From Candidatus Micrarchaeota archaeon (GTDB taxonomy: Archaea > Micrarchaeota > Micrarchaeia > Norongarragalinales > Norongarragalinaceae): 64,000 nt of DNA. The position numbers were made by a program, and so were the translations under genes. The DNA lies in the NCBI GenBank assembly GCA_016207165.1, contig JACQQD010000005.1:98736-162735 (forward strand), in the 5' to 3' direction. Below, piece after piece: positions 7,158 through 25,497 of the stretch. Numbering within the stretch: position 1 is the stretch's first letter; every line of letters starts with the position of its first letter. A model generated the notes under the pieces. That model was not told the DNA's origin. It saw nothing but the letters and a program-made list of their open reading frames with translations, and searched no databases.

Positions 7158-7158
7158 T

Positions 7159-7497
7159 TTGCATTCCATGATCAAAAAACACCCCTCATTCGTGCGGCAG
7201 AACAAGCGCTACAAAAAGCGCGTCCACGCCACCGGCTGGAGAAAACCCCGGGGCATCGACAACAAGCAACGCATTTCGCGCAAGAGCACGGGCGCGTTAC
7301 CGAAGATCGGCTACGGCGTCCCAAAAATTGAACGCCACCACCACCCCCACGCCGGAAAGGAAGTGTTGGTGCAAAACGCTTCGGATTTGTCCCGCGTGAC
7401 CACCCAAGCCGTGCGCTTTTCGGGTACCCTCGGCCGCAAGAAATACGACGCCCTCAAAAAAATCGCTGAAGAACGAAAACTCAAGGTGCTCAACTAA
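7159..7497 (+). CDS. rpl32e: 50S ribosomal protein eL32 (L32e)
   Basis: 112 aa, ...HPSFVRQNKRYKKRVHATGWRKPRGIDNK... Confidence 0.9.
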   Translation: MHSMIKKHPSFVRQNKRYKKRVHATGWRKPRGIDNKQRISRKSTGALPKIGYGVPKIERHHHPHAGKEVLVQNASDLSRVTTQAVRFSGTLGRKKYDALKKIAEERKLKVLN

Positions 7498-7501
7498 AAC
7501 C

Positions 7502-8439: not shown

Positions 8440-9104
8440 AATTCCGCGGCCGATTCGGCAAAGAACAACGAAAAAAAGACGACAAGCACTTGGAGTCCTG
8501 GGTGCCCAAAACCAGCCTCGGAAAGAGCGTGCGCGCCGGCGAAATCAATTCGTATGACGCGCTCTTGGCCACACAAAAACCCATTCTCGAACCGGAAATC
8601 ATCGATGTCCTGCTTCCCGACCTCATCGAGGACGTCCTGGAAATCCGCAGCACCCAACGCATGACGTCCTACGGCCGCAAACAACAAATGCGTGCCGTGG
8701 TCCTCGTCGGCAACAAGAAAGGAGTGTTGGGCGTCGGCATCGGCAAAGCCGCGGAAGTGCGCGACGCGATTGCCGAAGGCGTCAAGGACGCCAAAAAACA
8801 CTTGATTTGCGTGCCGTTTGGCTCCGGGTCCTGGGAAGACATTGCCGGACTTCAAAATTCGCTGCCCACGCAAGTCATTGGCAAAAGCGGCTCGACGACC
8901 ATCGTCATCAAGCCCGCGCCCCGCGGCGTGGGACTGGTGGCCGGAAAAGTCTCCAAGCAAGTCCTGGAGTTGGCCGGACTCAAGGACGCGTGGACGTTCA
9001 CCAAGGGCCGCACCCGAAACGTGTTGAACGTCGTGTTGGCGACCATGGACGCCCTGGATACGCTCAACCACCAAAAGAAAGGCGTGAAAGTCTCGGCATC
9101 CTGA
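8436..9104 (+). CDS. rps5: 30S ribosomal protein uS5 (S5)
   Basis: 222 aa, ...VVLVGNKKGVLGVGIGKAAEVRDAI... Confidence 0.93.
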   Translation: MKFRGRFGKEQRKKDDKHLESWVPKTSLGKSVRAGEINSYDALLATQKPILEPEIIDVLLPDLIEDVLEIRSTQRMTSYGRKQQMRAVVLVGNKKGVLGVGIGKAAEVRDAIAEGVKDAKKHLICVPFGSGSWEDIAGLQNSLPTQVIGKSGSTTIVIKPAPRGVGLVAGKVSKQVLELAGLKDAWTFTKGRTRNVLNVVLATMDALDTLNHQKKGVKVSAS

Positions 9105-9114
9105 AAGAGCAAAC

Positions 9115-9459
9115 GTGATTCATTCCATGTTGGTTTTGGTACTGGTTCGCGGACTGCGCAACGTGCGCATGCCCGTCAAAGACGCCTTGGCGCAATTGGG
9201 TTTGACGCGCCGCTACCACGCGGTACTGGTTGACGACTCCCAAAACGTCCAAGGCATTCTTAAGAAAGCCGAGCACCTCGTGGCCTGGGGCCCGGCTTCC
9301 GAAAAGACGGTTTCCGCATTGAAAAACAAGGGCCTTGCCCCGTACCGCTTGCACGCGCCCAAAAACGGTTTGCCGCCCGTCAAGCGCCGCTTCCCCCATG
9401 GCGCGTACGGCAACTGGAGCGAAGGCATCAACGCCCTGATTGAAGGCATGGTGGCATAA
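9115..9459 (+). CDS. rpl30: 50S ribosomal protein uL30 (L30)
   Basis: 114 aa, ...LVLVRGLRNVRMPVKDALAQLGLTRRYHAVLV... Confidence 0.88.
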   Translation: MIHSMLVLVLVRGLRNVRMPVKDALAQLGLTRRYHAVLVDDSQNVQGILKKAEHLVAWGPASEKTVSALKNKGLAPYRLHAPKNGLPPVKRRFPHGAYGNWSEGINALIEGMVA

Positions 9460-9465
9460 CGATTT

Positions 9466-9885
9466 ATGGCTCGACGCATCCGATCCCGAAAATTCCGGCA
9501 CCGCGGCAACCGCACCCACGGCGGCGGCAACACGAAGAACCGCCGCGGCAAAGGCAACAAAGGCGGCGTGGGCCGCGCCGGCTACCACAAGCACCGACGG
9601 CTCTACTTCATCAAGTTCGAGGGAAGCACCAAGCGCGACAAGGGACTTCACGGCTTTACCAACCCCGCCAAGAAAGTCTACGCCACCATTTCCCTGGACC
9701 AACTCCAGGACGCCATCGGGAAATTCCCCCAAAACGACCAAGGCGTCTACCAAGTCGTGATCCCCCAGACGAAAGTGCTTTCCGGCGGACAACTTTCCGC
9801 GAAAGCCCACGTCAAGGCCTACGGCTTCTCGGCGAAAGCCAAGGAAAAAATCGAGAAAGCCGGCGGCACGACGGCCACCTCCTGA
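9466..9885 (+). CDS. rpl15: 50S ribosomal protein uL15 (L15)
   Basis: 139 aa, MARRIRSRKFRHRGNRTHGGGNTKNRRGKG... Confidence 0.93.
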   Translation: MARRIRSRKFRHRGNRTHGGGNTKNRRGKGNKGGVGRAGYHKHRRLYFIKFEGSTKRDKGLHGFTNPAKKVYATISLDQLQDAIGKFPQNDQGVYQVVIPQTKVLSGGQLSAKAHVKAYGFSAKAKEKIEKAGGTTATS

Positions 9886-9945
9886 CTTTTTTCCCTTTGC
9901 GCCCCTCCGCCGGTTCCACAACCTTTTTATTAAAACCTTCGCTGA

Positions 9946-11400
9946 ATGGATAGGAAACTCATTATGGGATTACTGGATATTTTTCGCCCCATAGCCCGCG
10001 TTCTGCCGGAAGTCCAAAAACCGGACCGCGCCCCGCCCCTAAAAGACAAATTGCTTTGGACTCTGGCCGGGCTTTTGATCTTCTTTTTATTGGGCCAGAT
10101 TTTCCCGATTGGTTCTGACCCCAGCCAAATCCAGCAGACGTTCGCGCGGCTGGACATTTTGTTGGGTTCGTCCACGGGGTCGCTCATTACCGCCGGCATC
10201 GGCCCCATCGTCTTGGCCTCCATCTTCCTGCAGTTGGCCGTCGGCTCCAAGCTCTTGAACATCGACTTGTCGGTTCCCGAAAACAAGCAGTTCTTTCAAG
10301 GCCTGCAAAAGATTTTGGCCATTGCCCTGAGTTTCTTTGAAGCCGGCATCTTCGCGTTCTCCGGCTACATCCCCATTTCTTCCACGCATTTGTTCGGAAG
10401 CCTTTTCGCCACCCAGTTCATCGTCATGACGCAAATCGCGTTGGGCGCCATCCTCTTGATTTACTTGGACGAAGTCGTGCAAAAATACGGCATCGGCTCC
10501 GGCATTTCGCTTTTCATCGCCGCCGGCGTGTCGAAAGCCGTGTTCGTCGGCGCTTTCAGCTTCATCGCCTTGGGTGCCACCGGCGAGCCGGCGGGCCTGA
10601 TTCCCCGCTTTTTCTGGAACCTCATCAACCCCGCGGGCTCGGTGTCCACCGCGTTTTGGTCCTTGATTCCCGTCCTGTTTACCATCGTCATTTTCTTGAT
10701 CACCGTCTACGCGGAAGGCATGAAAATCGAACTGCCTTTAGCCTACGGCCGGGCCCGGGGTCTCGGAGCGCGTTACCCCATCAAGTTCTTGTACGTCTCC
10801 AACATCCCCGTGATCTTGGCTTCCGCCATTTTGTTGAACATCCAATTGTTGGGAGCGTTCACGGCCGCCCCCATTCCCGACCAGCCTGGACTCAAGGCAG
10901 GAATTTTTGGCACCTACCAAGGCAACCAGCCCGTCGACGGCTTCTCGTACTACATCAACGCCTTACCCAACCCCTTGTTGTTGGGCGGATACGAGCAGTA
11001 CCTCCAATTCATTTTGCAACCCCAGGAAATTCTACACGCCTTGACCTACGGCATTGCCTTGATTGTCTTGTGCGTGATTTTCGGGTGGTTTTGGATCGAG
11101 TCCACCGGAATGGGGCCCTCCGATGTCGCCAAGCAATTGGAGCGCTCCGGACTTCAAATCCCAGGCTTCCGGCAAGACCCCCGCATCACGCAAGGAATCC
11201 TCGAGCGCTACATCCCAATGATCACGATTTTGGGAAGCCTGTTCGTGGGCCTTCTGGCGTGGTTTGCCGACATTACCGGGGCGCTGGGCACCGGCACCGG
11301 AATTCTTCTCACCGTAGGCATCGTCTACCGCTTCTACGAGGATTTGGCCCGGCAACAACTCTTTGAAATGTATCCCGTGCTCAAAAGCATCGTCCAGTGA
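9946..11400 (+). CDS. secY: preprotein translocase subunit SecY (Sec61alpha)
   Basis: 484 aa, 10 predicted TM segments; follows rpl15 as in all archaea; start could be the downstream ATG 9964. Confidence 0.93.
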   Translation: MDRKLIMGLLDIFRPIARVLPEVQKPDRAPPLKDKLLWTLAGLLIFFLLGQIFPIGSDPSQIQQTFARLDILLGSSTGSLITAGIGPIVLASIFLQLAVGSKLLNIDLSVPENKQFFQGLQKILAIALSFFEAGIFAFSGYIPISSTHLFGSLFATQFIVMTQIALGAILLIYLDEVVQKYGIGSGISLFIAAGVSKAVFVGAFSFIALGATGEPAGLIPRFFWNLINPAGSVSTAFWSLIPVLFTIVIFLITVYAEGMKIELPLAYGRARGLGARYPIKFLYVSNIPVILASAILLNIQLLGAFTAAPIPDQPGLKAGIFGTYQGNQPVDGFSYYINALPNPLLLGGYEQYLQFILQPQEILHALTYGIALIVLCVIFGWFWIESTGMGPSDVAKQLERSGLQIPGFRQDPRITQGILERYIPMITILGSLFVGLLAWFADITGALGTGTGILLTVGIVYRFYEDLARQQLFEMYPVLKSIVQ

Positions 11401-11407
11401 TTCCGAA

Positions 11408-11911
11408 ATGGTTGAAGCCCTTCACGTGGTTTTGGTCCTCGCCGTGGCCTACTCCCTTTTTTCCCTCCTCCTCCAATTCACGTTGGGCAACCGCGTCCGC
11501 GTCAAGGGCATCCAAAAAGAAATGGCCGACCTCCAAAAAAAAATCCAGAAGGCCTCGGAATCCAAAGACGAAAAAGAAGTCAAGAAACTCCAGGAAACCC
11601 AGTCCCACATGACCGGCTTGATGTTCGAGTCCATGAAGTACCAATTCAAACCCCTGTTGGTCGTCTTGCCAGTGTTCATCGCATTGTTTGGAGGCTTCGG
11701 CTTCAACGGGTTCTTGATGGATTGGTACTCCGGCTTCCGAATCGTCCTGCCCTTTGACTTGCACTTGCCCGCGCTTTTCAGCTTCAACATCCTGACCGAC
11801 GGCGTCTACGGCGTGCGCGGCTTCTTCCTGGTCGGCGTCTTGTTCTCCGGCTTGCTCATCCAGCTCGTCTTGTCTCCACTCATCGAAAGGTTTTTCAACA
11901 AACAGCCGTAG
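11408..11911 (+). CDS. DUF106/EMC3/TMCO1-family membrane protein (archaeal YidC/Oxa1-like insertase)
   Basis: 3 TM segments plus coiled-coil (...MADLQKKIQKASESKDEKEVKKLQETQ...); conserved position after secY; upstream in-frame ATG 11363 overlaps secY, so 11408 preferred. Confidence 0.7.
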   Translation: MVEALHVVLVLAVAYSLFSLLLQFTLGNRVRVKGIQKEMADLQKKIQKASESKDEKEVKKLQETQSHMTGLMFESMKYQFKPLLVVLPVFIALFGGFGFNGFLMDWYSGFRIVLPFDLHLPALFSFNILTDGVYGVRGFFLVGVLFSGLLIQLVLSPLIERFFNKQP

Positions 11912-11935
11912 GAATTCTTGGAAAGGTGACTATTC

Positions 11936-12256
11936 ATGAAACGCTCCGTTTACCGACTCAAGAAACGCCAACGCAAGACGCCTTCCGGCAACCATTCCCA
12001 AATCCGGAAAAACAAGAAGCCCACTCCCGCCACCTGCGCTTTGTGCCGCCAGCGCCTCAACGCCGTCTTGAACCATTCCCGCGCCTTGATCAGAAAAACC
12101 GCGGCCACCGCCCGCCGTCCCCAACGCGTGTTCGGCGGCGTTCTGTGCGCCAACTGCACGCGCCACGTCGTCAAAACCAAAACCCGTCTAGCCCACGGCG
12201 CCGACGAGAAAGCCGTGCCGTTGACCCTGCTCAAATACGTCCGCATGCTCAAGTAG
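11936..12256 (+). CDS. rpl34e: 50S ribosomal protein eL34 (L34e), C4 zinc ribbon
   Basis: 106 aa, ...CALCRQ...CANC...; basic; position after DUF106. Confidence 0.8.
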   Translation: MKRSVYRLKKRQRKTPSGNHSQIRKNKKPTPATCALCRQRLNAVLNHSRALIRKTAATARRPQRVFGGVLCANCTRHVVKTKTRLAHGADEKAVPLTLLKYVRMLK

Positions 12257-12290
12257 GAATCTTTTAAACCCCGCATTCCTGTACTGGGTA

Positions 12291-12863
12291 ATGCGCATCG
12301 CCATTTCCAGCCTTTCCGGCTGCGGCAACTCCACGGTCTCCCGCATCGTGGCCAAAAAACTTGGACTTGAGTTCATCAACTACACGTTCCGCAACCTAGC
12401 CCGCGACACCAACGTCCTTTTTGAAACCATTCAATCCGAGTCCCTGAAAACCCCGAACTACGACTACGAGGTCGACCGCCGACAAATCGCCTTGATCCAA
12501 CAACATGACCACTGCGTGGTCGGAAGCCGCCTGGCGGTGTGGCTGGACGACGAAAAAATCCGCAAAAAAATCGCGGTCAAAGCCCCCGACTTCGACTTCA
12601 AAGTCTGGATTTACGCGCCATTAAAAGAAAGAGCGGCGCGCATCGCCCGCCGCGAGCACGCCCCCGTTCCCCAAGTGCTATCCGCCACGAAACTCCGCGA
12701 CGCGCAAAACGAGTTGCGGTACCGGAAATTGTATGGCATTGACGTGGAACGATTCCCCAAAGCCGTGGACCTCACCATCAACACGGAACGCTTTTCCGCC
12801 GAACAAGTCGCCGCTTTGATCATTTCCTCGGCAAGGAAAGTCAAATCCCTGAAATCCCGTTAG
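12291..12863 (+). CDS. cmk: cytidylate kinase (archaeal type)
   Basis: 190 aa; degenerate P-loop ISSLSGCGNST; lid ...RIARRE...; conserved rpl34e-cmk-rpl14e neighbourhood. Confidence 0.75.
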   Translation: MRIAISSLSGCGNSTVSRIVAKKLGLEFINYTFRNLARDTNVLFETIQSESLKTPNYDYEVDRRQIALIQQHDHCVVGSRLAVWLDDEKIRKKIAVKAPDFDFKVWIYAPLKERAARIARREHAPVPQVLSATKLRDAQNELRYRKLYGIDVERFPKAVDLTINTERFSAEQVAALIISSARKVKSLKSR

Positions 12864-12925
12864 ACCAAAGCCTTGAAAAACCCCTTTTCCCACCGTTTCA
12901 TTCCTCAATTTTAAGGTGATTACTC

Positions 12926-13093
12926 ATGGCTGCCATCGACATTGGACGCAAATGCGTCAAGCTCCGCGGACGGAAAACCGGCGAGACGGTGACGGTTTCA
13001 AAAAAAATCGACTCCAACTTCGTGGAAGTCACCGACTCGAAAGGAAAAACCAAGCGCTGCAACATCCGGCATTTGGAACCGTTGCCGGCGTGA
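12926..13093 (+). CDS. rpl14e: 50S ribosomal protein eL14 (L14e), minimal 55-aa KOW-only form (below the ORF-track length cutoff)
   Basis: MAAIDIGRKCVKLRGRKTGETVTVSKKIDSNFVEVTDSKGKTKRCNIRHLEPLPA resembles archaeal L14e (IEVGRICVKTRGREAGKKCVIV...NILHLEP); conserved position after cmk. Confidence 0.75.
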   Translation: MAAIDIGRKCVKLRGRKTGETVTVSKKIDSNFVEVTDSKGKTKRCNIRHLEPLPA

Positions 13094-13136
13094 GACGGAA
13101 ACTTGATTAATTCGTCCCGCTCTTTTACGGTGTGCC

Positions 13137-14135
13137 ATGAGCATCGCCCCGTTTGAACACCGTCGATTTCGCATCAACGGAATCAACGAAGAACGCTATC
13201 CCACGATCAAACGTGATTTAAACGGCATCATTTCCACGCCGGGCCGCGTCCGCACCGAGTTGGAAGAAAAGCTCACCAGCGAATACGTTTATCCCGCCAT
13301 TTTCAAGCCCATCCCTCACCCTCCAGACCTGGTAGGTTACCCGCGTCACGGCACAGACCGGCCCTTCCGAGCCATGCATTTTGCGGCGCTGGCCGATTTC
13401 ATGCGAGCGCTTCAACGAGAGCCTCCCACCGGAAAACTTGAAAAACCCGGGTCCTGGCTTTCCGGATTCCGCCAACAAGTCCTCGCCATGGTCGAGGAAT
13501 TGGCGGCGCTTTCCATGGATTTCCGCATCCGCCGGACGCCTCATGCCACCCTGGGCGCGTCGCTTGTTCAATCCCGCAACCTGGCCGAGACCGCCCACCA
13601 CAACCACGTGGCCCACGCCAACGTATGGGGCCGGTTGTGCCAAGGCATCACCCGTGTGACGCTTCGAGATGGGGAAGCCCAGCGCGAATCCATCGGCATC
13701 CACGCCTCGCAGATCGGATTGGTTCCCCTTACCGTGAGTCAAATCGCCCAGCACTACCTTGGCTTTGCCCTTCCCAAGACTCGTCTTTCCCGCGGTAACC
13801 GCGACGCGCGTTTCATTCCCGACGCGACTTCCTTTTCGTTCGGCAGGCAAGACGTCGCCCACTGGACGGGTTCTCACTTGTCTGCCGTGGAACTGGGGCA
13901 AAACAAGGAGAAGTTCGAGAAACTGGATGCCGACTTGAACGCCCACGTGGCGGCGCTGAAAGCTGCCGCTTCATTTGACTTGGGTGACCGCGTCCACCTC
14001 CATTACGGCTTGTACCTGGCCCAACAACTCACCGATGAAAAAAAGCGTGCGGAGTGTCTCCAAAGGCAAGTCCGTCGCGTACTTACCGTACTTTCCGAAA
14101 AATTGCCGGAGTCATATCGCAATCCCCGAAAGTAA
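13137..14135 (+). CDS. hypothetical protein (332 aa, no recognisable domain) inserted between rpl14e and cbf5
   Basis: long ORF with period-3 GC3 bias; no motif I can assign; an antisense ORF 13218..13946 also exists. Confidence 0.55.
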   Translation: MSIAPFEHRRFRINGINEERYPTIKRDLNGIISTPGRVRTELEEKLTSEYVYPAIFKPIPHPPDLVGYPRHGTDRPFRAMHFAALADFMRALQREPPTGKLEKPGSWLSGFRQQVLAMVEELAALSMDFRIRRTPHATLGASLVQSRNLAETAHHNHVAHANVWGRLCQGITRVTLRDGEAQRESIGIHASQIGLVPLTVSQIAQHYLGFALPKTRLSRGNRDARFIPDATSFSFGRQDVAHWTGSHLSAVELGQNKEKFEKLDADLNAHVAALKAAASFDLGDRVHLHYGLYLAQQLTDEKKRAECLQRQVRRVLTVLSEKLPESYRNPRK

Positions 14136-14185
14136 CCCGACGAAATAGTCGGGGTTTGCTATAACTGACGTAATTCTCTGTAAAT

Positions 14186-15214
14186 TTGGTTAAGCGTGAT
14201 GTCCGCCATTTTTTCCACGACTCGATTCTTCTTGGCCTTCATTTAAATCCTCGGAAGAAAATAATTCAACTCCGCGATGATTATATGATTACCCTTCACT
14301 CGGAAGAATCCACCTGGGGAAAGACCATGGATGAGAAGACCGTCGACGAAATCCTCCCCTATTCTTTGGTGGTCATCGACAAGCCCTGCGGCCCCTCCTC
14401 GCATGAAGTCTCCGCCTACGTGAAAAAGATTTTGGGCGTGACCAAGACCGGCCACTCCGGAACGCTTGATCCGGAAGTCTCCGGCGTCCTGCCGGTTTTG
14501 TTGGGCGAGGCGACGAAAGCCGCCGGTTTTTTGCTTCGCGAACGCAAGACGTACGTGGCCGTCATGAAACTCCGAGACCCGCAAACCGACGAACAGCTCG
14601 AAGACGCGTTCCAACGCTTCCGCGGCAAAATCTACCAGAAGCCCCCGAAAAAGTCGGCGGTCAAGCGGGAACTGCGCATCCGCGAGGTTTACTCGCTGAA
14701 ACTGCTTCAAAACGCCGGCCAATTCGTTGTTTTTGAATCCGAAGTCCAGGCTGGCACCTACATCCGAAAACTCTGCTACGATTTAGGCGAATACCTTGGG
14801 TGCGGAGGGTTGATGGCCGAACTCCGCCGCATCAATGCCGCCGGCTTTCCTGAAAACCAAGCCCACCCCCTCCAGCACTTGTCCGACGCCGTGTGGCTGT
14901 GGAAGGAGAAAGGCGACGACTCCGAAATCAAGAAAATCCTGGTGCCCATCGAAAACGCCATCCAACTCAAAAAAGTCGTGGTCTCCGATGGAGCCATCAA
15001 ACCCATTACTACCGGCGCCAACTTGGCCATTCCCGGCATTTTGTCTTTGGACGAAGGTATCCGGAAAGACGAACCCGTCCAAATTTTGTCCGGCAAAGGC
15101 GAACTGCTTTGCTTTGCCAAAGCCCTCAAGGACTCGGAAGAAATCCAATCCAAAAAGAAGGGCATCGCCTTTGACATCGAACGCGTGATTCGAGCGCACA
15201 ACGCGTACGGTTGA
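14186..15214 (+). CDS. cbf5: tRNA/rRNA pseudouridine synthase Cbf5 (TruB catalytic domain + PUA)
   Basis: ...LVVIDKPCGPSSHEVSAYVKKILGVTKTGHSGTLDPEVSGVLPVLL... (catalytic Asp motif GTLDP); N-terminus MVKRDVRH resembles Pyrococcus Cbf5 MARDEVRR; alternative starts 14285 and 14327. Confidence 0.88.
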   Translation: MVKRDVRHFFHDSILLGLHLNPRKKIIQLRDDYMITLHSEESTWGKTMDEKTVDEILPYSLVVIDKPCGPSSHEVSAYVKKILGVTKTGHSGTLDPEVSGVLPVLLGEATKAAGFLLRERKTYVAVMKLRDPQTDEQLEDAFQRFRGKIYQKPPKKSAVKRELRIREVYSLKLLQNAGQFVVFESEVQAGTYIRKLCYDLGEYLGCGGLMAELRRINAAGFPENQAHPLQHLSDAVWLWKEKGDDSEIKKILVPIENAIQLKKVVVSDGAIKPITTGANLAIPGILSLDEGIRKDEPVQILSGKGELLCFAKALKDSEEIQSKKKGIAFDIERVIRAHNAYG

Positions 15215-15273
15215 TTTTGAATCAACCGCGCGTTTTAATACCTCGGGCTCGACAACTGGTTTGAGGGTATGAA

Positions 15274-15492
15274 ATGGCTGAAATTACGCTCAACGACATG
15301 TACGCGGAACTAAAATGCCTGCACCAGGATGTGGAATACCTCAAGCGCCGCATGGACGAAAAAGAAGGAAAACCCGCCGACGATGAACCTCTTTCCGATT
15401 CGGAAGTCAAGCGCATGGAGGAGTTGATTGAGAAATCCATTAAGACCGGGCGCATCGTTTCCGAAGAAGAACTCTTTTCCTCCTTGAAGTGA
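15274..15492 (+). CDS. putative antitoxin (small acidic coiled-coil protein) of a type II TA pair
   Basis: 72 aa, 7-nt gap to downstream RelE/ParE-like ORF; possible RHH-like N-terminus MAEITLNDMYAELK. Confidence 0.5.
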   Translation: MAEITLNDMYAELKCLHQDVEYLKRRMDEKEGKPADDEPLSDSEVKRMEELIEKSIKTGRIVSEEELFSSLK

Positions 15493-15498
15493 ACTCCC

Positions 15499-15861
15499 GT
15501 GGAGTATTCGCTTTTCTCCACGGCCTTCTTCAAAACCCAGTTTGACTCTTTGCCCATCGACGAACGCCGGAAAATCCGCGACCGGCTTTTGCTGGCTAAA
15601 GCCAACCCGTTCCGCAACAAGGCCATCCACTCCAACCGCTTCAAGCGCTTGTTCCGAATCCGCTTGGACGTCCAAGGCGTTTCCATACGCTTGGTTTACG
15701 CGGTACTGGGCTCGAAAATCGTTGTGGCCGGCTTCATCCCCCGGGACAACGATTACCGGGATTTGGACTCGCTTCTCTCCAAAATGCAGCGGGAACTTGA
15801 AACCCAGACTGAGGCTGGCTTTTCTTTGGAGCCACCCGATTCAAAGCACGAAAAGGCCTAG
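15499..15861 (+). CDS. RelE/ParE-superfamily toxin (mRNA interferase-like)
   Basis: 120 aa; FFKTQFDSLPIDERRKIRDRLLLAKANPF...RFKRLFRIRLDVQGVSIRLVYAVLGSKIVVAGFIPRDNDY matches the RelE/ParE pattern (L..NP...k.l.g.l.g.yRiRvgdyRiiY). Confidence 0.7.
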   Translation: MEYSLFSTAFFKTQFDSLPIDERRKIRDRLLLAKANPFRNKAIHSNRFKRLFRIRLDVQGVSIRLVYAVLGSKIVVAGFIPRDNDYRDLDSLLSKMQRELETQTEAGFSLEPPDSKHEKA

Positions 15862-15882
15862 TACGCCCCCCGCGTAAAAGCG

Positions 15883-15889
15883 TTTAAAT
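15883..15889 (+). promoter_or_regulatory. TATA box (tttaaat) with purine-rich BRE-like aaaagcg upstream, ~24 nt before the ATG of the murein-hydrolase gene (leaderless)
   Basis: consensus archaeal TATA at canonical spacing. Confidence 0.45.
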
Positions 15890-15912
15890 CCCGATTCCGC
15901 CTCTTTTTGTTC

Positions 15913-18900
15913 ATGCGTGCCGTCTTTTCCCTTTCCATACTCGTCCTGCTTGTTTCGGCTTTCTCTATTTCCGCGGCAGGCAACTTGCTTGTCTTAAACA
16001 AGCAAGCCATTGCTTTTCAGCCTCCCTCGGATTGCTCGGGCAACCTGGCGTTGGAAGCCAGCATGGCCTGCGCCGCCAAAAACTCGGTTTTGGCGTCAGA
16101 CGGCCTGCGCTTGGATGTCCACGTGGGCTCCGATTTCGTCCAAAAATTGTCGGGCGCCAACACGCGTCTGACGTGGTTCACCGGCGAGGGCCCGGTAATC
16201 TCGGATGCCCTCTCGTTTCCTTTGACCGGCGAAGGCTTCAGCGTCATTCATTTCGACGGCCGCCAGCTTCACGTCTACGCGAGTACCTCGGACACGGAAG
16301 CCGCTGCGGCGCTCGGCCAATATCTTTTTGATGAACGGAAGAATTTGGCGTTCAACAAGGATTGCCGCCTCTCCGTTTCCAGTAACGGCGACGCCATTGC
16401 CTTCAAGAAGTGCGTGCCGACCAACCTGCCTACCAAATCCTCTTTTCAAACTCAGTCATTGGGCTCCCAAGCGTACGATGACTTTTTCGTCTACGATGCC
16501 GCGCAAGGCGGCGTTTCAGCGGGAGCTTTGCCGGAGTTGGGTGACTGTAGCAAGGTTGCGTTCTCCAAATGGCCCACGCCTTCCAAGGAAGTCATCGACA
16601 AGTTCAACGTGGCCGGACTTGGAGGTTACGATTCCGGTCATCGCACGCACAAGGGCATCGACATTTCCATTGCGGAGAACGACCCCGTCTACTCCGTTCT
16701 GCCCGGAAAAATCCTCGACATTTACTCGGCGTGTCCGGCTTACTCAACCCCCGCCGACTACGGTTGCGGCGGCGGCTTCGGAAACTTGGTGAAAGTCGTC
16801 CACGGAACGTGTACCTACGACGGACAGAAAAGCTACTTCATGACGCAATACAACCATTTGGCCAAGGCGGCCGACGGCCTCAAGATTGGAGACGGCGTTG
16901 CCGCTGGCCAGAAAATCGCGTTGGGCGGCAGCTCGGGAAGGTCCACAGGCCCCCACTTGCATTTCGGGGCCGCGTTAATCGACTCGCTGAAAACCGGTCA
17001 ATCCACGGATTCGGACTCCAACGTCGTGTTGAACCCATCGCCGGCCTTAACCGTGGCCTCGTTGCCTGCAGGCTCCGTTCCCGGCCCCGTTCAAGCGCGC
17101 CCGCAATCCATTTTGGATTTTGCGGAAGAAGGTAAAATCAAGACTTCAGTCAAAAACGGCGAAACCGGGATCCTAGCCATCACGCCTTCCGTCAACGGCC
17201 AATGCAGTCAACCGCCCCAAACACCCTATCTACTTGGGCAAGCCCAGGAACTTTCGTCCCCCATTTGCGTCTATTACCAGCTTAGCGCGGAGCACGCGGC
17301 GGCCGTGCAAGACATCGCCTTTGCCGGTTATAGCGAACGTTCCGGCAGTTACTTTACCGTCCGATCCGCCATTCCAAAGGACTCCTCCATCCAGTACCCG
17401 GAAGACTATGAATCGCAAGTCAACATCGGGAAACCACTTTCCGCTTCGGGCCAGCCATCCGCCGGTGTCGCCGTCGCCGCACTGCCTGTGCTTAAACCCG
17501 GTGACTCGTATCCGGGAGGCCTGCACTTGAACATGTATTTGCGCACGGAATTAATTTCTCCTTCAACGGAAGTCAGTGCGAATGCCAAGGCCCCGGGAAT
17601 TTCCCGCGTGAAAGTCGGTGAAATCAACGTCGGCCTCCTGAAAAGCAATTACATCAAGAACGTTCCAGGCTCGCTTCAAGGCAAGACCTTCGTCATCGAT
17701 CCCGGCCATGGCGGGCCGGACGGGTTGGGTTCCTACGTGGGCGCCGACGAGAAAACCACGCCCCGCCACGAACGCACCATCACGCTGGCTGTTTCCAAAG
17801 AACTCCGAGAGCTTCTCTCTGGCGCCGGCGCCAAGGTGGTCATGACGCGCGAAACCGACGTGGACGTCGATTTGTCAGACCGGGCGGACCTGGCGGACAG
17901 CCAGAACGCGGATGCGTTCGTCAGCGTCCACGTCAACTGCGACCGGGAAAAAGCGATTCGAGAAACGCAGGGAATCACCCAGTTTGCCGGCATCAAGAAA
18001 ACCGATCCTGAACTTTGCTCTGCGGGCGTGATCTATCCCAAAGTGGGAGGCGCGCAAGAGAAAAACAGCATTGGGTTGGCGCAAGCCATTGCCAAGTCCA
18101 TGTCCCTGGATTCCCTTCCGTCGTTTGGCGTGTACTTTGACGGCCCCGGTTCGACGTTCGTGGGCACGTATTACGCCGGAAAAATCTACAAGCCCACGCC
18201 GTTAGGCGTCCTTCGCGGCACTACCAAGACGGCGGTGCTGGTGGAAATGGGGCCCATCGACGACGATCGGCTGGATGACTCCAATTACCAGCAGCAATTG
18301 GCGCAACAGATTTACGGTGGGATTCTTCAGAAGTTTGGTACAAGTTCCACGCCGACTTCGGGTGCTTTCAATGTCCAATTGCATGCATGCACACAGGGGC
18401 AGGTCAACAACGGGGATTATTCGCTGACTTTTGAAGAACTTGACCCACTGATTACCGAAGCCTCCCAAAAGTATGGCGTTGAAAAGGCGCTCATCAAGGC
18501 CATCATTTCCCAGGAAAGCGGCCGCCGCCCCTGTGTCATTTCCTTTTACAAGGACTGCTGTTTTGGCTTGATGCAATTGAATCGGCTCAACGGCGATGAA
18601 ACCGGCTATAGTTTGGCGACCAGCACCGCCGGCGTCTTGCAACAGCAAACCGGGTTTGCTTGTTTTGATAAGCCCCTGGATCCCCGCAACAACATCATGT
18701 GTGGCGCCAAGCACTTGGCGGATTTGGTGCGTTTTTATGGCAACAAGTATCCTGGTCAGGACTCCATTAAAATCGTGGCCGCGGCCTACAACGCCGGCGG
18801 CGGAAACGTGGAAAAGTACGGCGGCGTGCCCCCGTTTGGCGAAACGCAAAACTACGTCGTTGAAGTCCGCAAGTTTTACGACCAGTACCGCACGGCGTAA
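15913..18900 (+). CDS. secreted multidomain peptidoglycan hydrolase: signal peptide + M23/LytM endopeptidase + Amidase_3 (MurNAc-L-Ala amidase) + C-terminal SLT lytic transglycosylase
   Basis: signal MRAVFSLSILVLLVSAFS; M23 motifs HKGIDIS...D...YNHL...GSSGRSTGPHLHFG; Amidase_3 KTFVIDPGHGGPDG...ADAFVSVHVNC; SLT ...LIKAIISQESGRRP...FGLMQLN...AAAYNAGGGNV; track ORF starts at TTG 15907, ATG 15913 preferred. Confidence 0.8.
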   Translation: MRAVFSLSILVLLVSAFSISAAGNLLVLNKQAIAFQPPSDCSGNLALEASMACAAKNSVLASDGLRLDVHVGSDFVQKLSGANTRLTWFTGEGPVISDALSFPLTGEGFSVIHFDGRQLHVYASTSDTEAAAALGQYLFDERKNLAFNKDCRLSVSSNGDAIAFKKCVPTNLPTKSSFQTQSLGSQAYDDFFVYDAAQGGVSAGALPELGDCSKVAFSKWPTPSKEVIDKFNVAGLGGYDSGHRTHKGIDISIAENDPVYSVLPGKILDIYSACPAYSTPADYGCGGGFGNLVKVVHGTCTYDGQKSYFMTQYNHLAKAADGLKIGDGVAAGQKIALGGSSGRSTGPHLHFGAALIDSLKTGQSTDSDSNVVLNPSPALTVASLPAGSVPGPVQARPQSILDFAEEGKIKTSVKNGETGILAITPSVNGQCSQPPQTPYLLGQAQELSSPICVYYQLSAEHAAAVQDIAFAGYSERSGSYFTVRSAIPKDSSIQYPEDYESQVNIGKPLSASGQPSAGVAVAALPVLKPGDSYPGGLHLNMYLRTELISPSTEVSANAKAPGISRVKVGEINVGLLKSNYIKNVPGSLQGKTFVIDPGHGGPDGLGSYVGADEKTTPRHERTITLAVSKELRELLSGAGAKVVMTRETDVDVDLSDRADLADSQNADAFVSVHVNCDREKAIRETQGITQFAGIKKTDPELCSAGVIYPKVGGAQEKNSIGLAQAIAKSMSLDSLPSFGVYFDGPGSTFVGTYYAGKIYKPTPLGVLRGTTKTAVLVEMGPIDDDRLDDSNYQQQLAQQIYGGILQKFGTSSTPTSGAFNVQLHACTQGQVNNGDYSLTFEELDPLITEASQKYGVEKALIKAIISQESGRRPCVISFYKDCCFGLMQLNRLNGDETGYSLATSTAGVLQQQTGFACFDKPLDPRNNIMCGAKHLADLVRFYGNKYPGQDSIKIVAAAYNAGGGNVEKYGGVPPFGETQNYVVEVRKFYDQYRTA

Positions 18901-18982
18901 CCCCCCGAATCCTTTTTAAACCCGTTTGGGCATGGTTAGTAGCCTGGAAGCTCAGTTAGCGGTTTTGTTTTCCGGAGATTCG

Positions 18983-18990
18983 TTTAAATA
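18983..18990 (+). promoter_or_regulatory. TATA box (tttaaata) 30 nt upstream of the tRNA-Ser 5' end
   Basis: consensus archaeal TATA at canonical distance from the mature tRNA 5' end. Confidence 0.45.
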
Positions 18991-19020
18991 CGATCGATTC
19001 AAAGAATTTGTTCTTTGAAT

Positions 19021-19249
19021 GCCGGGATGGCAGAACGGTAATGCGCAACCCTGGAAACCCGATTCCTGTCAAGGAGGGACCTCAGGAGCATGCGATGGTT
19101 GGAAGGCAACCATCGCTTCGCTGAATAGGTCGTCATCGGGCCGTTAAGGTTGTGGGCGCAAGCCCTTCTGAGTTCGAAACGAAGAAACGCCTCGAAAGGG
19201 GTTGCGATTGACGGAGTCAATTGCTTCGCTGAAAATCTCAGTCCCGGCG
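19021..19249 (+). tRNA. tRNA-Ser(GGA) precursor with two introns: canonical 37/38 intron (19057-19146, 90 nt, contains a 10-bp hairpin) and a T-loop 59/60 intron (19179-19235, 57 nt)
   Basis: hand-folded: acceptor GCCGGGA/TCCCGGC + G73; D-arm GCA-GAACGGTAA-TGC; anticodon stem CAACC/GGTTG with loop CUGGAA|intron|A; variable arm GGGC-GCAA-GCCC (class II); T-arm CTGAG-TTCGAA|intron|T-CTCAG; followed by TTTTTGTTTT. Confidence 0.6.
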
Positions 19250-19273
19250 TTTTTGTTTTAAAAAGTTGATTCA

Positions 19274-19921
19274 ATGGCTGCCCGAGAAGAAGAACAGGAA
19301 GAAAAAAAGGAGAAGGCCAAGTTCGGCCGCGCGCAGGCAGGCAAAACCGAGGCCAAGGAAAAGCCGAAGGCAAGGCTCCAGCAAAAAATCGACGTCAAGA
19401 AGACGGGCAAAGAAAAAGAGCATTTCCGGGGCATCGTGCGCATCGTCGGCAAAGACCTCAAAGGCCATGTCACCGTGAAAAACGCGTTGCGCCAAGTGCC
19501 GGGCATCGGCCACAACCTGGCGGCTTCCTTGATTCGGGGCGTCATGAAGAACGCGGATTTTGCTTCCGACGAGTTGGTCGGCAACTTGTCGGATGAACAA
19601 CTCTCCCAATTCGAGGTCGTCATCAAGGACCCCCAGAAATTCGGGGTTCCCGCATACCTTTTGAATCGACCGTTGGACCCGGAGACCGGAAAACCGGTGC
19701 ACCGCGTCATGGCGGAACTGACTTTTTCGGTGCGCCAGGACATCAACAAGGAAAAAGACTTGCGTTCGTATCGTGGCTGGCGCCACCAAATGGGCCAGAA
19801 AGTCCGCGGCCAGCGCACCCGCTCGACTGGAAGAACCGGCATGAGCGTGGGCGTGTTGAAGAAGGCGGCGGCCAAGAAGGGCGCCGTACCGGCGGAAGGC
19901 GCCAAGGAAGAAAAGAAGTGA
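19274..19921 (+). CDS. rps13: 30S ribosomal protein uS13 (S13) with Lys/Glu-rich N-terminal extension
   Basis: 215 aa; core ...[33 protein letters not shown]...; N-terminal 45 aa [11 protein letters not shown]... Confidence 0.9.
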
Positions 19922-19925
19922 TGGC

Positions 19926-20552
19926 ATGGGCGACCCTAAGAGAAACCGCAAGCAATTCGAGGGCCCCAAGCGGTTGTGGGACAAGAAGCGCATCGACGAA
20001 GAAAAGGCGTTGCGCGAGGAATTCGGCCTCAAAAACGCGCGCGAGCTTTGGAAGATGCAGACGATTCTGCGCCGCATCCGGCGCGAAGCCAGGCGGCTGT
20101 TGTCGAAAAAAGGCGCGGACTTGGACCGGCGCACCAATCAACTCATGGGCCGCGCCAAGCGCTTCCTCATTTCCAATCCTGCCGCGACGGTGGACGACGT
20201 GTTGTTGCTGACGCCCCGCGACATTTTGTCCCGGCGCTTGCAGACCATCGTCGTCCGCAAGCACTTGGCCCGCACCAACCGCCAAGCCCGCCAATTCATC
20301 GTGCACGGCCACATTTCCGTCCAGGGCCAGCGCGTCACCGCCCCGTCGTACTTGGTGAGCTTCCAAGAGGAAGACCAAATCAATTGGTACAAGCACCCGT
20401 TGCAGACCGCGCCAGCGACTTCGGACCAAAGCGCCACCGAAGAAAACGGCGAAAAACAAAAGACGGCCAAGGCCACGCCCGTGCAAGACGTTCAACCCAC
20501 ACCTACCGGGGACGAAGCCGAGCCGGCTGAACCCGAAGCGGAGGCGGCTTGA
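19926..20552 (+). CDS. rps4: 30S ribosomal protein uS4 (S4) with acidic C-terminal tail
   Basis: 208 aa; ...[12 protein letters not shown]...S4 domain...; tail [12 protein letters not shown]. Confidence 0.9.
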
Positions 20553-21034
20553 TCATGGCAGACGACGAACAGAGAACGCCAAGCGGCCCGCCGCGCCGAC
20601 GCGGCCCATTCCACCACCGCGACGACCAGCCGAGAAAAGTCTTGCCCAAGGAAGGAAAATGGGGCATTGCGTACCTGTATTCCTCGAAGAACGACACGAT
20701 CATTACTGTCACGGATTTAAGCGGAGCCGAAACCATTGCGAAAGCCTCTGGAGGCATGGTCGTGAAAAGCTCGCGCGAGAAGGGCTCGCCGTACGCCGCC
20801 ATGCAGTCCGCGTTTCTCGTCGCCAACAAGGCCAAGGAGCGGGGCTTGTCCGGCATCCACATCCGTGTGCGCGCCCCCGGCGGCCACGGGTCCAAGACTC
20901 CGGGTTCCGGTGCCCAAGCGGCGATTCGCGCCTTGGCGCGCAGCGGCTTGCGCGTGGGACGGATTGAAGACGTGACTCCCATTCCAACGGATTCGACGAA
21001 GCGTCCGGGCGGAAAACGAGGTCGGCGCGTGTGA
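20549..21034 (+). CDS. rps11: 30S ribosomal protein uS11 (S11)
   Basis: 161 aa, ...[33 protein letters not shown]...[11 protein letters not shown]... Confidence 0.93.
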
Positions 21035-21693
21035 ACATTCAACTCTTGGATGAAAAGGAGCGGAAAGCCTGGTTTTTGGTCTCCGGCGCCTCCACGTCCT
21101 TGCTTAACGCACTGCGGCGCGCGGTTATCTCCGAGTTGCCGGCGTTCGCCATCGAGGAAGTCCAGTTCTACGAAAACACGTCGCCCATGTTCAACGAGTA
21201 CGTGGCCGCCCGCCTGGGCTTGGTGCCGTTGACGTTTGAAGAGTCTTCGTCGACGTCGCAGGTGTCCTTGTCGTTGGACGCCGAGGCCGTCGAGGAACCC
21301 AAGACCGTGTACAGCGGTGACTTGATTTCCCAGGACGAGGCCATCAAGCCCTCGTTTCTGCACGTTCCCATCATGAAACTGGGCAAGGGCCAGCGTCTCC
21401 GATTTGAAGCCATTGCCGTGGTGGGCACCGGAAAAAAGCACGCCAAGTTCCAGTCGGCGTTGGCGAGCTTTTCATCCGTCCAGGAGTACTTGGATGAGGA
21501 AAAAGAGCGCAAGGCCGGTGAAGTCGGTGCTTCCCGGCACGCCTTTGCCGGTAAATTGCCTGGGGACGTCAAGAAAAACGAGTCCGTTTTTTATGTGGAG
21601 ACCTTCAACAACGTGGCCGCCCGGGAACAATTGTACCGGGCCGTGCGGGTGGTGGAGGCCCAATTGGATCGCGTCGTGGAGCTAGTCAAATGA
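21031..21693 (+). CDS. rpoD: DNA-directed RNA polymerase subunit D (Rpo3)
   Basis: 220 aa, ...[43 protein letters not shown]...; canonical S13-S4-S11-rpoD order. Confidence 0.85.
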
Positions 21694-23805: not shown

Positions 23806-25290
23806 TCACTGGGGCGCGTTGGGCTTCATTTTCTTGAAGTACCACAGTGTCCCGCCCAACGCGAGAATCAGCACGAGCACGCCGCCGATGATGACGAAGT
23901 CCACGTCGTTTCCTTTCGGTGGAAGCGTTCCCGCCCGGTTGGCCAGTTGCGAGGCTTGCGTTTGAACGGCTTCAAATCCGGCTTGTCCAGCGGCGGCGCC
24001 CGACGTGCCCAAAACGGATATGGACGACGTGAGGTTGGCGTTGAGTCCATCCAGTTCTTTCTTCATTTCCTGGACGCGGGCATCGGATTCCCCGTATTTG
24101 CGCTGGGCTTCCGTGACGTTGGCGTCTGCGGCGGCGATGGCCGATACGGCGAGCCGAAATTGCGTGGAAGCGGACTCGAAAGCCAAAACCAATGCGTCCA
24201 GTTCCGCGTACTTGGCGTCAAAGCTTTCCGTCGCGCCGCTTTGCTGGACGGTTTGCAGTTCCTGTTTCAAGGCGTCTTTCTTGGCGGTGATTGCCGTGAG
24301 GTTCACGCTGCCGCCAGCGCTGTACTCGGCGGTGAGGTTGGCGATGCGGGCCTCGATTTTCGTGGTTTTTTCCGCGCGAAGGGCTCCAGCCGCTCCTTTT
24401 TGCGCGCCTTCCAGGCGGGCGACCGTCTCCGTGAAGACGACGTCGACGAGTTGGTCTGCGGAGCGCAACGCCTTGTTGGAGAACGTGTTTTGGATTACGG
24501 AAAGCGCGGTGCTGGCGTTCGCGACAAAATCGCACGTGTGCGGCGTTCCGGACTTGTAGAACGTGGCTTTCAGGATGAACGAGAAATCGCCGCTGGCGTT
24601 CAACGTGGCGTACGCTGAAGACACCGTCGTGTACTCGCGGCTAAGCGTGGCCGCGCTGTCGCGCAGCACGCCGACGGATGCCAGGATGGCGTCGCGGTTG
24701 CCTTGCGCCACGGTTTCGTTGAACGTGCCGGCTTTCTCCGCGAATTGGTCGTAAGCCGCCGCGTAAGCGGGAAACGAGTTGTTGATTTGCTGGATGGCTT
24801 GGTATTCGGATTTGTACGTGTCGCTTTTGCCTTCCTCTCCATTGGATCGCTCAATCAGGTAGTACAAGCCGATGTTGGCTTTCCCGATGCGGATCGTGCG
24901 GCGGGTAATGCTTTCCACAAACGTGTCGGCTCCAATGCGGCAGTCGCCGAGGACTTCGCGGATGATGGCTTCATTGGTGGACGCGGTGGCCGCGTGCTGG
25001 GCGAAGTCTTGGTCGTCAAAGAGCTTTTGCGCGTACGCGTCCAGGATGGGCTTCAATTGCGTTTTTTCTTTGACTGGCTCGAATGTGCCGTCGGCGGGTT
25101 TCAGTACCACGGACGGCGTGCCGTCGATTTTAAGCACGCTGTACGTCGTGCCCCCAACGCCGATTTCGTCAATGACCTTGCTTTCGCCGGTCTTGACGTA
25201 GTGCTCGGAAACTTGCACGGCGGTTAAGCCGAACGCGGTGGCGGATGCGAAAACCAATATTAAAAGTGCTGAATTGAGTCGGATGTCCAT
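23806..25290 (-). CDS. secreted surface protein: signal peptide, Ala/Thr/Gln-rich coiled-coil region with multiple N-x-S/T sequons, C-terminal TM anchor + KKMK
   Basis: MDIRLNSALLILVFASATAFG signal; ...DFVIIGGVLVLILALGGTLWYFKKMK C-terminal anchor; track ORF extends to TTG 25347 abutting tRNA-Tyr. Confidence 0.6.
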   Translation of the reverse strand: MDIRLNSALLILVFASATAFGLTAVQVSEHYVKTGESKVIDEIGVGGTTYSVLKIDGTPSVVLKPADGTFEPVKEKTQLKPILDAYAQKLFDDQDFAQHAATASTNEAIIREVLGDCRIGADTFVESITRRTIRIGKANIGLYYLIERSNGEEGKSDTYKSEYQAIQQINNSFPAYAAAYDQFAEKAGTFNETVAQGNRDAILASVGVLRDSAATLSREYTTVSSAYATLNASGDFSFILKATFYKSGTPHTCDFVANASTALSVIQNTFSNKALRSADQLVDVVFTETVARLEGAQKGAAGALRAEKTTKIEARIANLTAEYSAGGSVNLTAITAKKDALKQELQTVQQSGATESFDAKYAELDALVLAFESASTQFRLAVSAIAAADANVTEAQRKYGESDARVQEMKKELDGLNANLTSSISVLGTSGAAAGQAGFEAVQTQASQLANRAGTLPPKGNDVDFVIIGGVLVLILALGGTLWYFKKMKPNAPQ

Positions 25291-25348
25291 AAGGCTTAAT
25301 AAAACGGGGAATCCCTTATAATGCTTGCGCAAATTGCGGTTGCGCAAT

Positions 25349-25497
25349 CCCGCTGTAGCTCAACCTGGCAGAGCACCTGACTGTAGGACTGCGGACCGTT
25401 TTTGTAGGTACGTTTTCCGGTTACAGCCTGCTCTGTCTTTAGAGACAGATTCCTGAAAGAAATCAGGGTGTTGCCAGTTCAAATCTGGCCAGCGGGA
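25349..25497 (+). tRNA. tRNA-Tyr(GUA) precursor with ~75-nt canonical 37/38 intron (25387-25461)
   Basis: acceptor CCCGCTG/CAGCGGG + A73; D-arm GCTC-AACCTGGCA-GAGC; anticodon stem CCTGA/TCAGG with loop CUGUAG|intron; variable GTGTT; T-arm GCCAG-TTCAAAT-CTGGC. Confidence 0.75.

Follow-up and report, generated by a model that had tools for sequence, protein, structure and literature searches.

Modular peptidoglycan hydrolases encoded by archaea were described by Strock et al. (2025, PLoS Biol; PMC12352652), with the Halogranum protein 'Woldo' (M23 + PG_binding_1) as one example. These enzymes often carry signal peptides, show a patchy and plasmid-biased distribution and have partly been shown to act on bacteria, including haloarchaeal M23 hydrolases that kill bacteria in experiments (PMC12352652). 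The screen that retrieved them asked for at least one catalytic and at least one cell-wall-binding Pfam domain (LysM, SPOR, PG_binding, SH3 and similar), and supplementary file 3 of that work contains three Micrarchaeota genomes with other architectures, such as LysM+SLT and PG_binding_3+Glyco_hydro_108 (PMC12352652). A second group is formed by the giant extracellular SLT proteins of family fam00969, which are described as confined to Woesearchaeota and Pacearchaeota, reach up to 3,000 amino acids (aa) and have SLT as their sole named domain (bioRxiv 10.1101/2021.01.12.426361); such giant DPANN proteins have been seen as a means by which these archaea attach to bacteria or attack them (bioRxiv 10.1101/2021.01.12.426361; PMC9723730). 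In this line, we analysed a stretch of 64,000 nucleotides (nt) from a Candidatus Micrarchaeota archaeon (assembly GCA_016207165.1, contig JACQQD010000005.1, positions 98,736 to 162,735 of the forward strand), hereafter the window, where the gene at 15913-18900 encodes a predicted hydrolase with three catalytic domains for murein. A previous reading made from the sequence alone had overstated the novelty of this gene, since both archaeal peptidoglycan hydrolases and DPANN giants with SLT domains were already published (PMC12352652; bioRxiv 10.1101/2021.01.12.426361; PMC9723730). The interpretation that we favour, and with some reservation consider probable, is that the product is a secreted murein enzyme of ~103 kDa and one allele of an old locus, restricted to Micrarchaeota, where domains have been shuffled.

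The open reading frame (ORF) of the hydrolase runs on the forward strand to a stop at 18900 and has two alternative starts, a TTG at 15907 (997 aa) and an ATG at 15913 (995 aa). The ATG-start form corresponds to the NCBI record 'N-acetylmuramoyl-L-alanine amidase [Candidatus Micrarchaeota archaeon]', located on a contig of 204 kb. For the mature protein we computed a mass of ~103 kDa, an isoelectric point of 5.6 and 18 Cys. Its parts are the following, where MurNAc stands for N-acetylmuramic acid, GH for glycoside hydrolase and the slash for the putative cleavage site:

15913-18900, + strand: hydrolase coding sequence, 995 aa (ORF call, Pfam and NCBI record)
15913-15978, + strand: putative Sec-type signal peptide, aa 1-22, MRAVFSLSILVLLVSAFSISAA/G (Kyte-Doolittle heuristic)
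15979-16437, + strand: N module, aa ~23-175, alpha/beta, family-specific, with four invariant Cys
16645-16968, + strand: Peptidase_M23, a LytM-type zinc endopeptidase (Pfam)
17110-17667, + strand: M module, aa ~400-585, a family-specific beta-sandwich, Ig/FN3-like
17692-18327, + strand: Amidase_3, a MurNAc-L-alanine amidase (Pfam), ~40 residues longer than the 174-position model
18448-18831, + strand: SLT, a family-1 lytic transglycosylase, GH23 (Pfam)

The sequence-only reading had proposed that M23, Amidase_3 and SLT domains are fused in this single ORF behind a signal peptide, which is borne out by the domain searches: all three families score above their Pfam cut-offs, and the motifs that it quoted are present and intact. 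The match to Peptidase_M23 (PF01551, aa 245-352) reaches 58.4 bits against a cut-off of 28.7 (E 8.6e-16) and keeps a complete set of motifs, namely H246-x3-D250 (H246KGID250), H315 and H348-x-H350 (H348LH350). Amidase_3 (PF01520, aa 594-805) scores 108.7 bits against 27 (E 4.5e-31) over profile positions 2-173 of 174, with GH599GG, HE620R, SVH673VN and LVE778MG all in place; we take H599, E620 and H673 to be the zinc ligands and E778 the catalytic Glu, an assignment that follows the motif pattern of CwlV/AmiC-type enzymes and not a structural superposition. The SLT match (PF01464, aa 846-973) has 62.3 bits against 21.3 (E 4e-17) and likewise complete motifs (QE868-S869, GLMQ885-888 and AYNAG958-962). 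In P0002, an orthologue that shares 43% identity with the window protein, every one of the M23 and Amidase_3 motifs is invariant, as are E868, S869 and GLMQ of the SLT domain.

Sequence matches among PDB entries were TagE, LytM, ShyA and lysostaphin for the M23 domain (best E 3e-9), 4rn7, CwlV, AmiC, AmiA and LytH for Amidase_3 (best E 1e-13) and MltC for SLT (E 1e-4). The CwlD, AmiA-C, MepM, ShyA and MltC families of NCBIfam were also matched, but always far under their equivalog cut-offs (69.7 against 221.6 in the case of CwlD), and therefore no named bacterial enzyme is orthologous to the hydrolase. As for the signal peptide, secretion was called by a heuristic that combines hydropathy with the layout of the n- and c-regions. 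Residues 1-22 are the only segment of the protein above 1.6 on the Kyte-Doolittle scale, accompanied by a charged n-region and an S-A-A/G c-region, in agreement with the earlier claim, and the same scan gave no C-terminal anchor. The four invariant Cys of the N module likewise count in favour of export. About half of the protein is non-catalytic, including its two conserved modules, which had escaped the sequence-only reading and of which N is a candidate targeting domain and M a candidate spacer or binding domain; that both of them replace, as targeting and spacer domains, the absent classical wall-binding domain is something we only infer.

A HMMER profile of the two orthologues was searched against 1.84 billion cluster representatives, and the best 150 matches were considered. 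They include a family of ~11 clusters at 50% identity, with six proteins at E<=1e-30, whereas a few large proteins align to the profile over the N-terminal 160 residues only. All family members have an equivalent hydrophobic N-terminus and usually follow a common plan composed of a signal peptide, the N module (~155 aa), M23, the M module (~170 aa) and varying wall-active domains. Beyond M23, these additional domains are Amidase_3, Amidase_2, SLT, GH3, a carbohydrate esterase family 4 (CE4) deacetylase (Polysacc_deac_1) and YkuD. The window hydrolase has the signal peptide, N, M23 and M that define the family and lies directly 3' of Cbf5. The architectures are:

P0001 (window protein, 995 aa) and P0002 (999 aa): order N, M23, M, Amidase_3, SLT
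P0009, 1136 aa: order N, M23, Amidase_3, M, SLT
P0010, 1295 aa: two M23, GH3, SLT (Pfam)
P0013, 1442 aa: two M23, Amidase_3 (Pfam)
P0014, 1544 aa: M23, polysaccharide deacetylase, Amidase_2 (Pfam)
P0017 (1272 aa) and P0034 (1460 aa): M23, Amidase_2, SLT (Pfam)
P0035, 918 aa: order N, YkuD, M, SLT, M23
P0022, 868 aa: YkuD, M23, SLT; without the N module, but with the M region and at the same locus

Every type of catalytic domain added in this family is known from murein metabolism, so that murein would be the substrate under selection, and selection appears to act on murein chemistry and not on one fold. Family proteins with a source named by NCBI, P0001 included, are all Candidatus Micrarchaeota (5 of 5). 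A scan of genome contigs with one narrow peptide pattern from the N module recovered a single locus. One family contig is entitled 'NC_groundwater_1746_Pr3_B-0.1um_53_26', and a groundwater metagenome is given as the source in the one further sample record where a source is named.

The position of the gene is as characteristic of the family as its domains. The elements that anchor it in the window are:

14285-15214, + strand: Cbf5 (TruB_N + TruB_C_2 + PUA; Pfam), the upstream anchor
19021-19249, + strand: tRNA-Ser(GGA) with two introns, unannotated, the downstream anchor (conservation and in-silico splicing)
19274-21693, + strand: S13-S4-S11-RpoD block (Pfam for S13, S4 and S11)

All nine members with a readable context are found directly downstream of Cbf5 (9 of 9), and Cbf5 identity among these loci is 66-88%. 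The S13-S4-S11-RpoD genes follow downstream in the window and in five contigs (L002, L003, L006/L007, L008 and L010), RpoD having been identified through a match to the RNA_pol_L/RNA_pol_A_bac gene of L002. Two other arrangements were observed further downstream: in L004 we find HATPase_c_3 genes and an IS66 transposase instead of S13, and in L012 (GCA_016214445.1) the gene of P0022 is immediately followed by a second, 496-aa M23-domain gene at 3972-5462, with AAA_14/DUF4143 genes replacing the S13 block.

The hydrolases are not related to one another in the way that their neighbours are. When the window is compared with L002, identity is 54-83% for the flanking proteins and 43% for the hydrolases. 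L008 is the contig with the closest flanks to those of the window (Cbf5 83%, S13 84%, S11 91% and RpoD 90%), and despite this its hydrolase has a different architecture and an N module that is merely 30-33% identical to the one in the window. Across seven loci, identities of the N module did not track those of Cbf5 (Spearman rho -0.07). Moreover, L003 carries two family members of different types in tandem. This discordance may have arisen by differential loss of old paralogues, as supported by the L003 tandem, or alternatively through cassette exchange between lineages, for which the conserved flanks may have offered the means.

Such a fixed locus would also suit a quite different enzyme, one that remodels a wall polymer (pseudomurein or an unknown glycopeptide), either in the archaeon's own envelope or in that of an archaeal host, as a housekeeping function. 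All relatives recovered have the locus, embedded among ribosomal-protein genes, and cultured Micrarchaeota associate with archaea. We regard this explanation as very unlikely. Catalysis by SLT domains requires a free C6-OH on beta-1,4-linked MurNAc to form the 1,6-anhydro ring, whereas pseudomurein has beta-1,3-linked N-acetyltalosaminuronic acid in place of MurNAc, a linkage incompatible with SLT chemistry. No mur-like gene was found by Pfam in the 64-kb window, and a study of 163 Micrarchaeota genomes is free of the words peptidoglycan, murein and cell wall. Furthermore, swaps of the whole catalytic set between close relatives are unexpected for a housekeeping enzyme.

Fixation of the family beside Cbf5, in lineages with 66-88% Cbf5 identity, indicates that any acquisition from bacteria would predate the split of these lineages, and an ancient bacterial origin of the catalytic domains is plausible. 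The suggestion of horizontal acquisition made by the sequence-only reading is thus plausible in general terms, but not as a lone or recent transfer, because the gene belongs to an old Cbf5-linked family and its donor is not identifiable. The best matches outside the family, among the best 150, reach at most 113 bits and cover single domains; only two of them have an organism name, both from Bacillota. A recent transfer from an identifiable donor was rejected on account of these low, single-domain scores.

In this regard, proteins with several lysin domains are typical of phage tails and of conjugation in Gram-positive bacteria, and the hydrolase could be imagined as the lysin or entry enzyme of a virus or conjugative element inserted beside tRNA-Ser. 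A tRNA gene is indeed adjacent, modules resembling toxin-antitoxin (TA) pairs are scattered through the interval, and among phages the SLT domain comes closest to the tape-measure lysin YomI/CwlP of Bacillus phage SPbeta, with 36.7% identity over aa 796-989 (19% of the query); the same YomI/CwlP match was also obtained on a B. subtilis plasmid record. We consider this origin highly improbable. Searches of phage and plasmid collections with tblastn returned single-domain matches at <=37% identity only, with none of the records reaching 80% coverage of the query, which left a phage or plasmid origin unsupported. The genes called from Cbf5 to S13 in the loci examined include no integrase, capsid, terminase or conjugation families, the composition of the gene is native, and a virus of a murein-less archaeon would need no murein lysin. 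In contrast with a phage tail lysin, the neighbours of the gene are Cbf5, a tRNA and ribosomal proteins, and YomI aligns to the SLT domain only.

A further trait of the family is the avoidance of N-x-S/T sequons, whose expected numbers were obtained from residue shuffles. Eleven family proteins (the window protein P0001, P0002, P0009-P0011, P0013, P0014, P0017, P0022, P0034 and P0035; ~12,000 residues) contain a single sequon where 73 were expected. The other 26 proteins of the window have 49 (44.5 expected), and 149 homologues outside the family, mostly bacterial, have 536 (586 expected). Since neither of these two sets shows it, the avoidance is specific to the family and not a property of the folds. 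Such a pattern agrees with proteins that travel by the route of archaeal export and N-glycosylation while selection keeps them free of glycans, and would support both secretion and long residence in archaea. A further hydrolase outside the family, P0140 (SLT + M23, at 8001-10532 of L014), has zero sequons, and its contig carries Alba, aS21, EF-1beta and FEN1, for which reason we consider it another archaeal hydrolase. When zero sequons were tried as a predictor of archaeal origin, P0140 turned out archaeal by context, and the context of P0020 was undecidable. Other archaeal effectors directed against bacteria could be sought by their avoidance of sequons.

The hydrolase gene is native to the archaeal genome. 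As already pointed out by the sequence-only reading, the setting is that of archaeal ribosomal proteins. Cbf5 and S13-S4-S11-RpoD flank the hydrolase and L32e, L19e and L34e lie upstream, to which SecY, a split RpoB, EF-2 and EF-1alpha can be added as archaeal markers of the window. The check for a chimeric assembly that it called for came out in favour of a native gene: a 3-kb segment that covers the gene body has a tetranucleotide z of -0.06 against the whole stretch, and as to the gene, its relative synonymous codon usage (RSCU) correlates with that of the other window genes at r = 0.94, its GC content is 0.566 and its GC at third codon positions 0.68, compared with ~0.70-0.80 for most other genes tested. 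A bacterial fragment joined into an archaeal contig during assembly or binning has, in our opinion, a negligible chance of explaining the data. Its sole hint is a mild dip in GC (0.52-0.53) at 14-16 kb, which covers Cbf5 and a small ORF pair and not the hydrolase, and to which a tetranucleotide z of ~2 at 13-17 kb is attributed. A separate Logan contig, which comes from run SRR12113385, matches positions 5913-19049 at 100% identity and spans the upstream junction. Eight further contigs, obtained from other samples, have family members at this locus too. In addition, the archaeal promoter motif is conserved among loci, and sequon avoidance is not seen in the mostly bacterial homologues outside the family. 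Misassembly and contamination were rejected on the basis of native composition and codon usage, the separate Logan contig and shared synteny.

Close to the gene, the following elements were found, BRE being the transcription factor B recognition element:

15274-15861, + strand: small ORF pair of 72 aa (15274-15492) and 120 aa (15499-15861), a possible TA pair
15876-15889, + strand: BRE/TATA-like promoter, AAAAGCG TTTAAAT (sequence; archaeal consensus)
18913-18917, + strand: oligo-T run, 13 nt past the stop codon (sequence)

The TATA box that had been assigned to the gene corresponds to TTTAAAT at 15883-15889, 30 nt 5' of the ATG. A motif aaaagc(g/c)ttt(a/t)(a/t)a occurs ~30 nt before the hydrolase ATG also in L002, L003 (first gene), L004, L006 and L008, with small variations across these five loci such as aaaggc in L006. 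The gene probably uses this conserved archaeal-type promoter to give a leaderless mRNA, and the oligo-T run is a possible archaeal terminator. The TA module reported beside the gene exists as a pair of ORFs, but its toxin-antitoxin identity is weak and it is present at some loci only. The 120-aa ORF has a sub-threshold Gp49/HigB-like match in Pfam (18.4 bits against 23.9, E 0.0022) and no NCBIfam or PDB sequence match, and the 72-aa ORF has no family match in Pfam or NCBIfam and none in a PDB sequence search. Both ORFs are conserved in L008 (2515-3102), at 83% and 79% identity, and L004 (9236-9717) has a homologue of the 72-aa ORF that is 37% identical; the pair was not found at L002, L006, L010 or L011. 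We regard it as a variable insert that does not belong to the constant content of the locus. Elsewhere, different TA-type modules (PIN/MazE, HEPN/MNT, DUF4258 and HigB) are found between L15 and the hydrolase.

The downstream tRNA-Ser(GGA) was missed by ARAGORN and by Rfam, whose E-value scan of 18850-19330 was empty. Its introns lie at ~19057-19146, near position 37/38, and at ~19180-19236, in the T-loop, and vary in length among loci. Most exon positions are invariant across six loci and the anticodon stem covaries; once spliced in silico, the sequence is called by ARAGORN as tRNA-Ser(gga). A GTTTAAATA promoter of its own precedes this gene at 18982-18990, and the gene ends in an oligo-T tail.

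Altogether, we propose the following mechanism. The gene would be transcribed from its own BRE/TATA promoter into a leaderless mRNA, and a cleavable signal peptide would direct the product through Sec, to be set free outside the cell with neither glycans nor an anchor. At the bacterial sacculus, M23 would cleave the peptide cross-links, Amidase_3 the amide bond between MurNAc and L-Ala, removing the stem peptides, and SLT the glycosidic bond between MurNAc and N-acetylglucosamine to yield 1,6-anhydro-muropeptides; positioning or targeting of the enzyme would probably fall to the N and M modules. On the evolutionary side, the locus would be fixed between Cbf5 and tRNA-Ser/S13, with its wall-active domains repeatedly shuffled or exchanged there. 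Candidate ecological uses are killing of or competition with bacteria, the breaching of a bacterial host's wall, and the consumption of wall material. The use against bacteria that the sequence-only reading suggested would agree with the data equally well as predation, as competition or as episymbiotic attachment, and so would the scavenging of walls. The hydrolase would probably be a tool, retained over a long time, with which bacteria are attacked or fed upon.

Several observations weigh against this proposal. To our knowledge, cultured Micrarchaeota associate with murein-free archaea (e.g., the wall-less Thermoplasmatales), and a bacterial partner would be unprecedented. No recognised cell-wall-binding domain was detected in the hydrolase, in which Pfam finds the three catalytic families only. 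Finally, weaponised archaeal hydrolases are reported to be patchily distributed and biased towards plasmids (PMC12352652), in contrast to the fixed position of this gene next to core genes, which could instead point to a housekeeping role.

The same biochemistry would serve an archaeon that digests free murein or necromass and takes up the amino sugars and peptides without killing or contacting any living bacterium, a reading that overlaps with the murein enzyme we propose and that, taken on its own, seems to us rather unlikely. Its enzyme would appear as this one does, soluble and free of an anchor. One family member adds a GH3 domain, a Pfam family that includes NagZ-type N-acetylglucosaminidases of muropeptide breakdown. 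The window also encodes enzymes of the tricarboxylic acid (TCA) cycle type, and groundwater Micrarchaeota with a TCA-type metabolism have been proposed to be less host-dependent (PMC12892359). On the contrary, genes for the transport or catabolism of muropeptides or amino sugars do not adjoin the locus in any context read, and the fast turnover of types resembles target-driven diversification more than catabolism.

A stronger form of the proposed attack on bacteria, which is possible but which we put forward only tentatively, would make one groundwater and freshwater clade of Micrarchaeota predators or episymbionts of bacteria and not dependants of archaea, with the hydrolase locus as a core determinant of host range. 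The locus would be an ancient set of secreted wall-opening proteins with several activities each, whose catalytic cassettes are swapped or sorted between lineages in an arms race against the wall chemistries of bacteria. If this bacteria-dependent clade exists, its N-glycan-free proteins could work in, or cross, the bacterial envelope, and sequon avoidance would be a general mark by which archaeal proteins directed against bacteria could be searched for.

Other features of the window were observed along the way. An ORF of 1154 aa (45079-48543, + strand) contains Rpb1 domains 1-5, which suggests a fused A' + A'' of the RNA polymerase, and RpoB is split in two ORFs (41811-43277 and 43274-45082). 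The region 34976-41335 (+ strand) encodes aconitase, isocitrate dehydrogenase and both ATP-citrate-lyase-like subunits (Citrate_bind/ATP-grasp, then CoA-ligase/citrate-synthase domains), a central metabolism unusually rich for a DPANN archaeon. Together with a window GC of ~58%, the TCA-type genes resemble what PMC12892359 discusses for groundwater Micrarchaeota with a rich metabolism. On the minus strand, a SulP/STAS sulfate permease occupies two overlapping ORFs (25508-27189), with the N-terminal half at 26428-27189 and the C-terminal half plus STAS at 25508-26590; this split could reflect a frameshift, a pseudogene or a sequencing error. Two large ORFs are without a Pfam match. One of 745 aa (49761-51998, + strand) has a lipoprotein-like start (LLLMGC) and 1 sequon against 4.5 expected, and another of 512 aa (23806-25347, - strand) is sequon-rich (8 against 3.3 expected) and may for this reason be a glycosylated surface protein. 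A 149-nt Rfam tRNA match at 25349-25497 (+ strand; 50.6 bits), which ARAGORN does not report, covers the full 71-position model and must therefore contain an insert such as an intron; presumably it is a second intron-bearing tRNA.

If the hydrolase acts as we propose, the locus would be of use in several ways. For the study of physical or antagonistic contact between DPANN archaea and bacteria, it offers an expressible enzyme family with catalytic-dead controls, and it supplies two candidate targeting domains and a natural series of domain-swapped alleles for the analysis of target range. The fixed core-gene position suggests that wall attack would be a stable part of the lifestyle of the clade and not an occasional weapon. 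Lysins with multiple activities are also of applied interest as antibacterials. Neither the family with its two modules, nor its range of fused activities, nor the fixed locus with discordant turnover was found described in the papers searched, and the literature on Micrarchaeota that mentions peptidoglycan, transglycosylase, amidase or M23 gave no description of a Cbf5-linked hydrolase family.

How this protein relates to the known systems can now be stated more precisely. With the bacterial single-domain autolysins (LytM/lysostaphin/ShyA; CwlV/AmiA-C/LytH/CwlD; MltC/Slt) it shares catalytic folds and motifs, but differs in its host, in the fusion of activities and in the accessory modules. 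SPbeta YomI/CwlP is similar in bearing several murein-cleaving domains (SLT + M23) on one polypeptide, and the Gram-positive conjugation hydrolase PrgK of pCF10 combines LytM, SLT and CHAP. Those proteins, however, are parts of phage tails or conjugation machineries that breach the wall locally on behalf of a bacterial element, whereas the window protein is encoded by a free-standing chromosomal gene, contains an extra Amidase_3 and, in the searches made, aligns with YomI/CwlP through SLT alone. The likeness to fam00969 lies in large DPANN proteins, secreted (by prediction in our case), with a lytic-transglycosylase domain for murein; going by the description of that family only, the present one differs in belonging to Micrarchaeota, in having 2-4 different wall-active domains and in its own N and M modules. 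The closest parallel is offered by the hydrolases of Strock et al., which are also archaeal-encoded wall hydrolases of bacterial type and have the M23 domain in common with the window protein. In contrast to them, the window protein lacks a wall-binding Pfam domain, so it falls outside the definition used in that screen, which would have missed the family; it joins three catalytic domains to two family-specific modules, and belongs to a Cbf5-linked family that is kept at one chromosomal locus.

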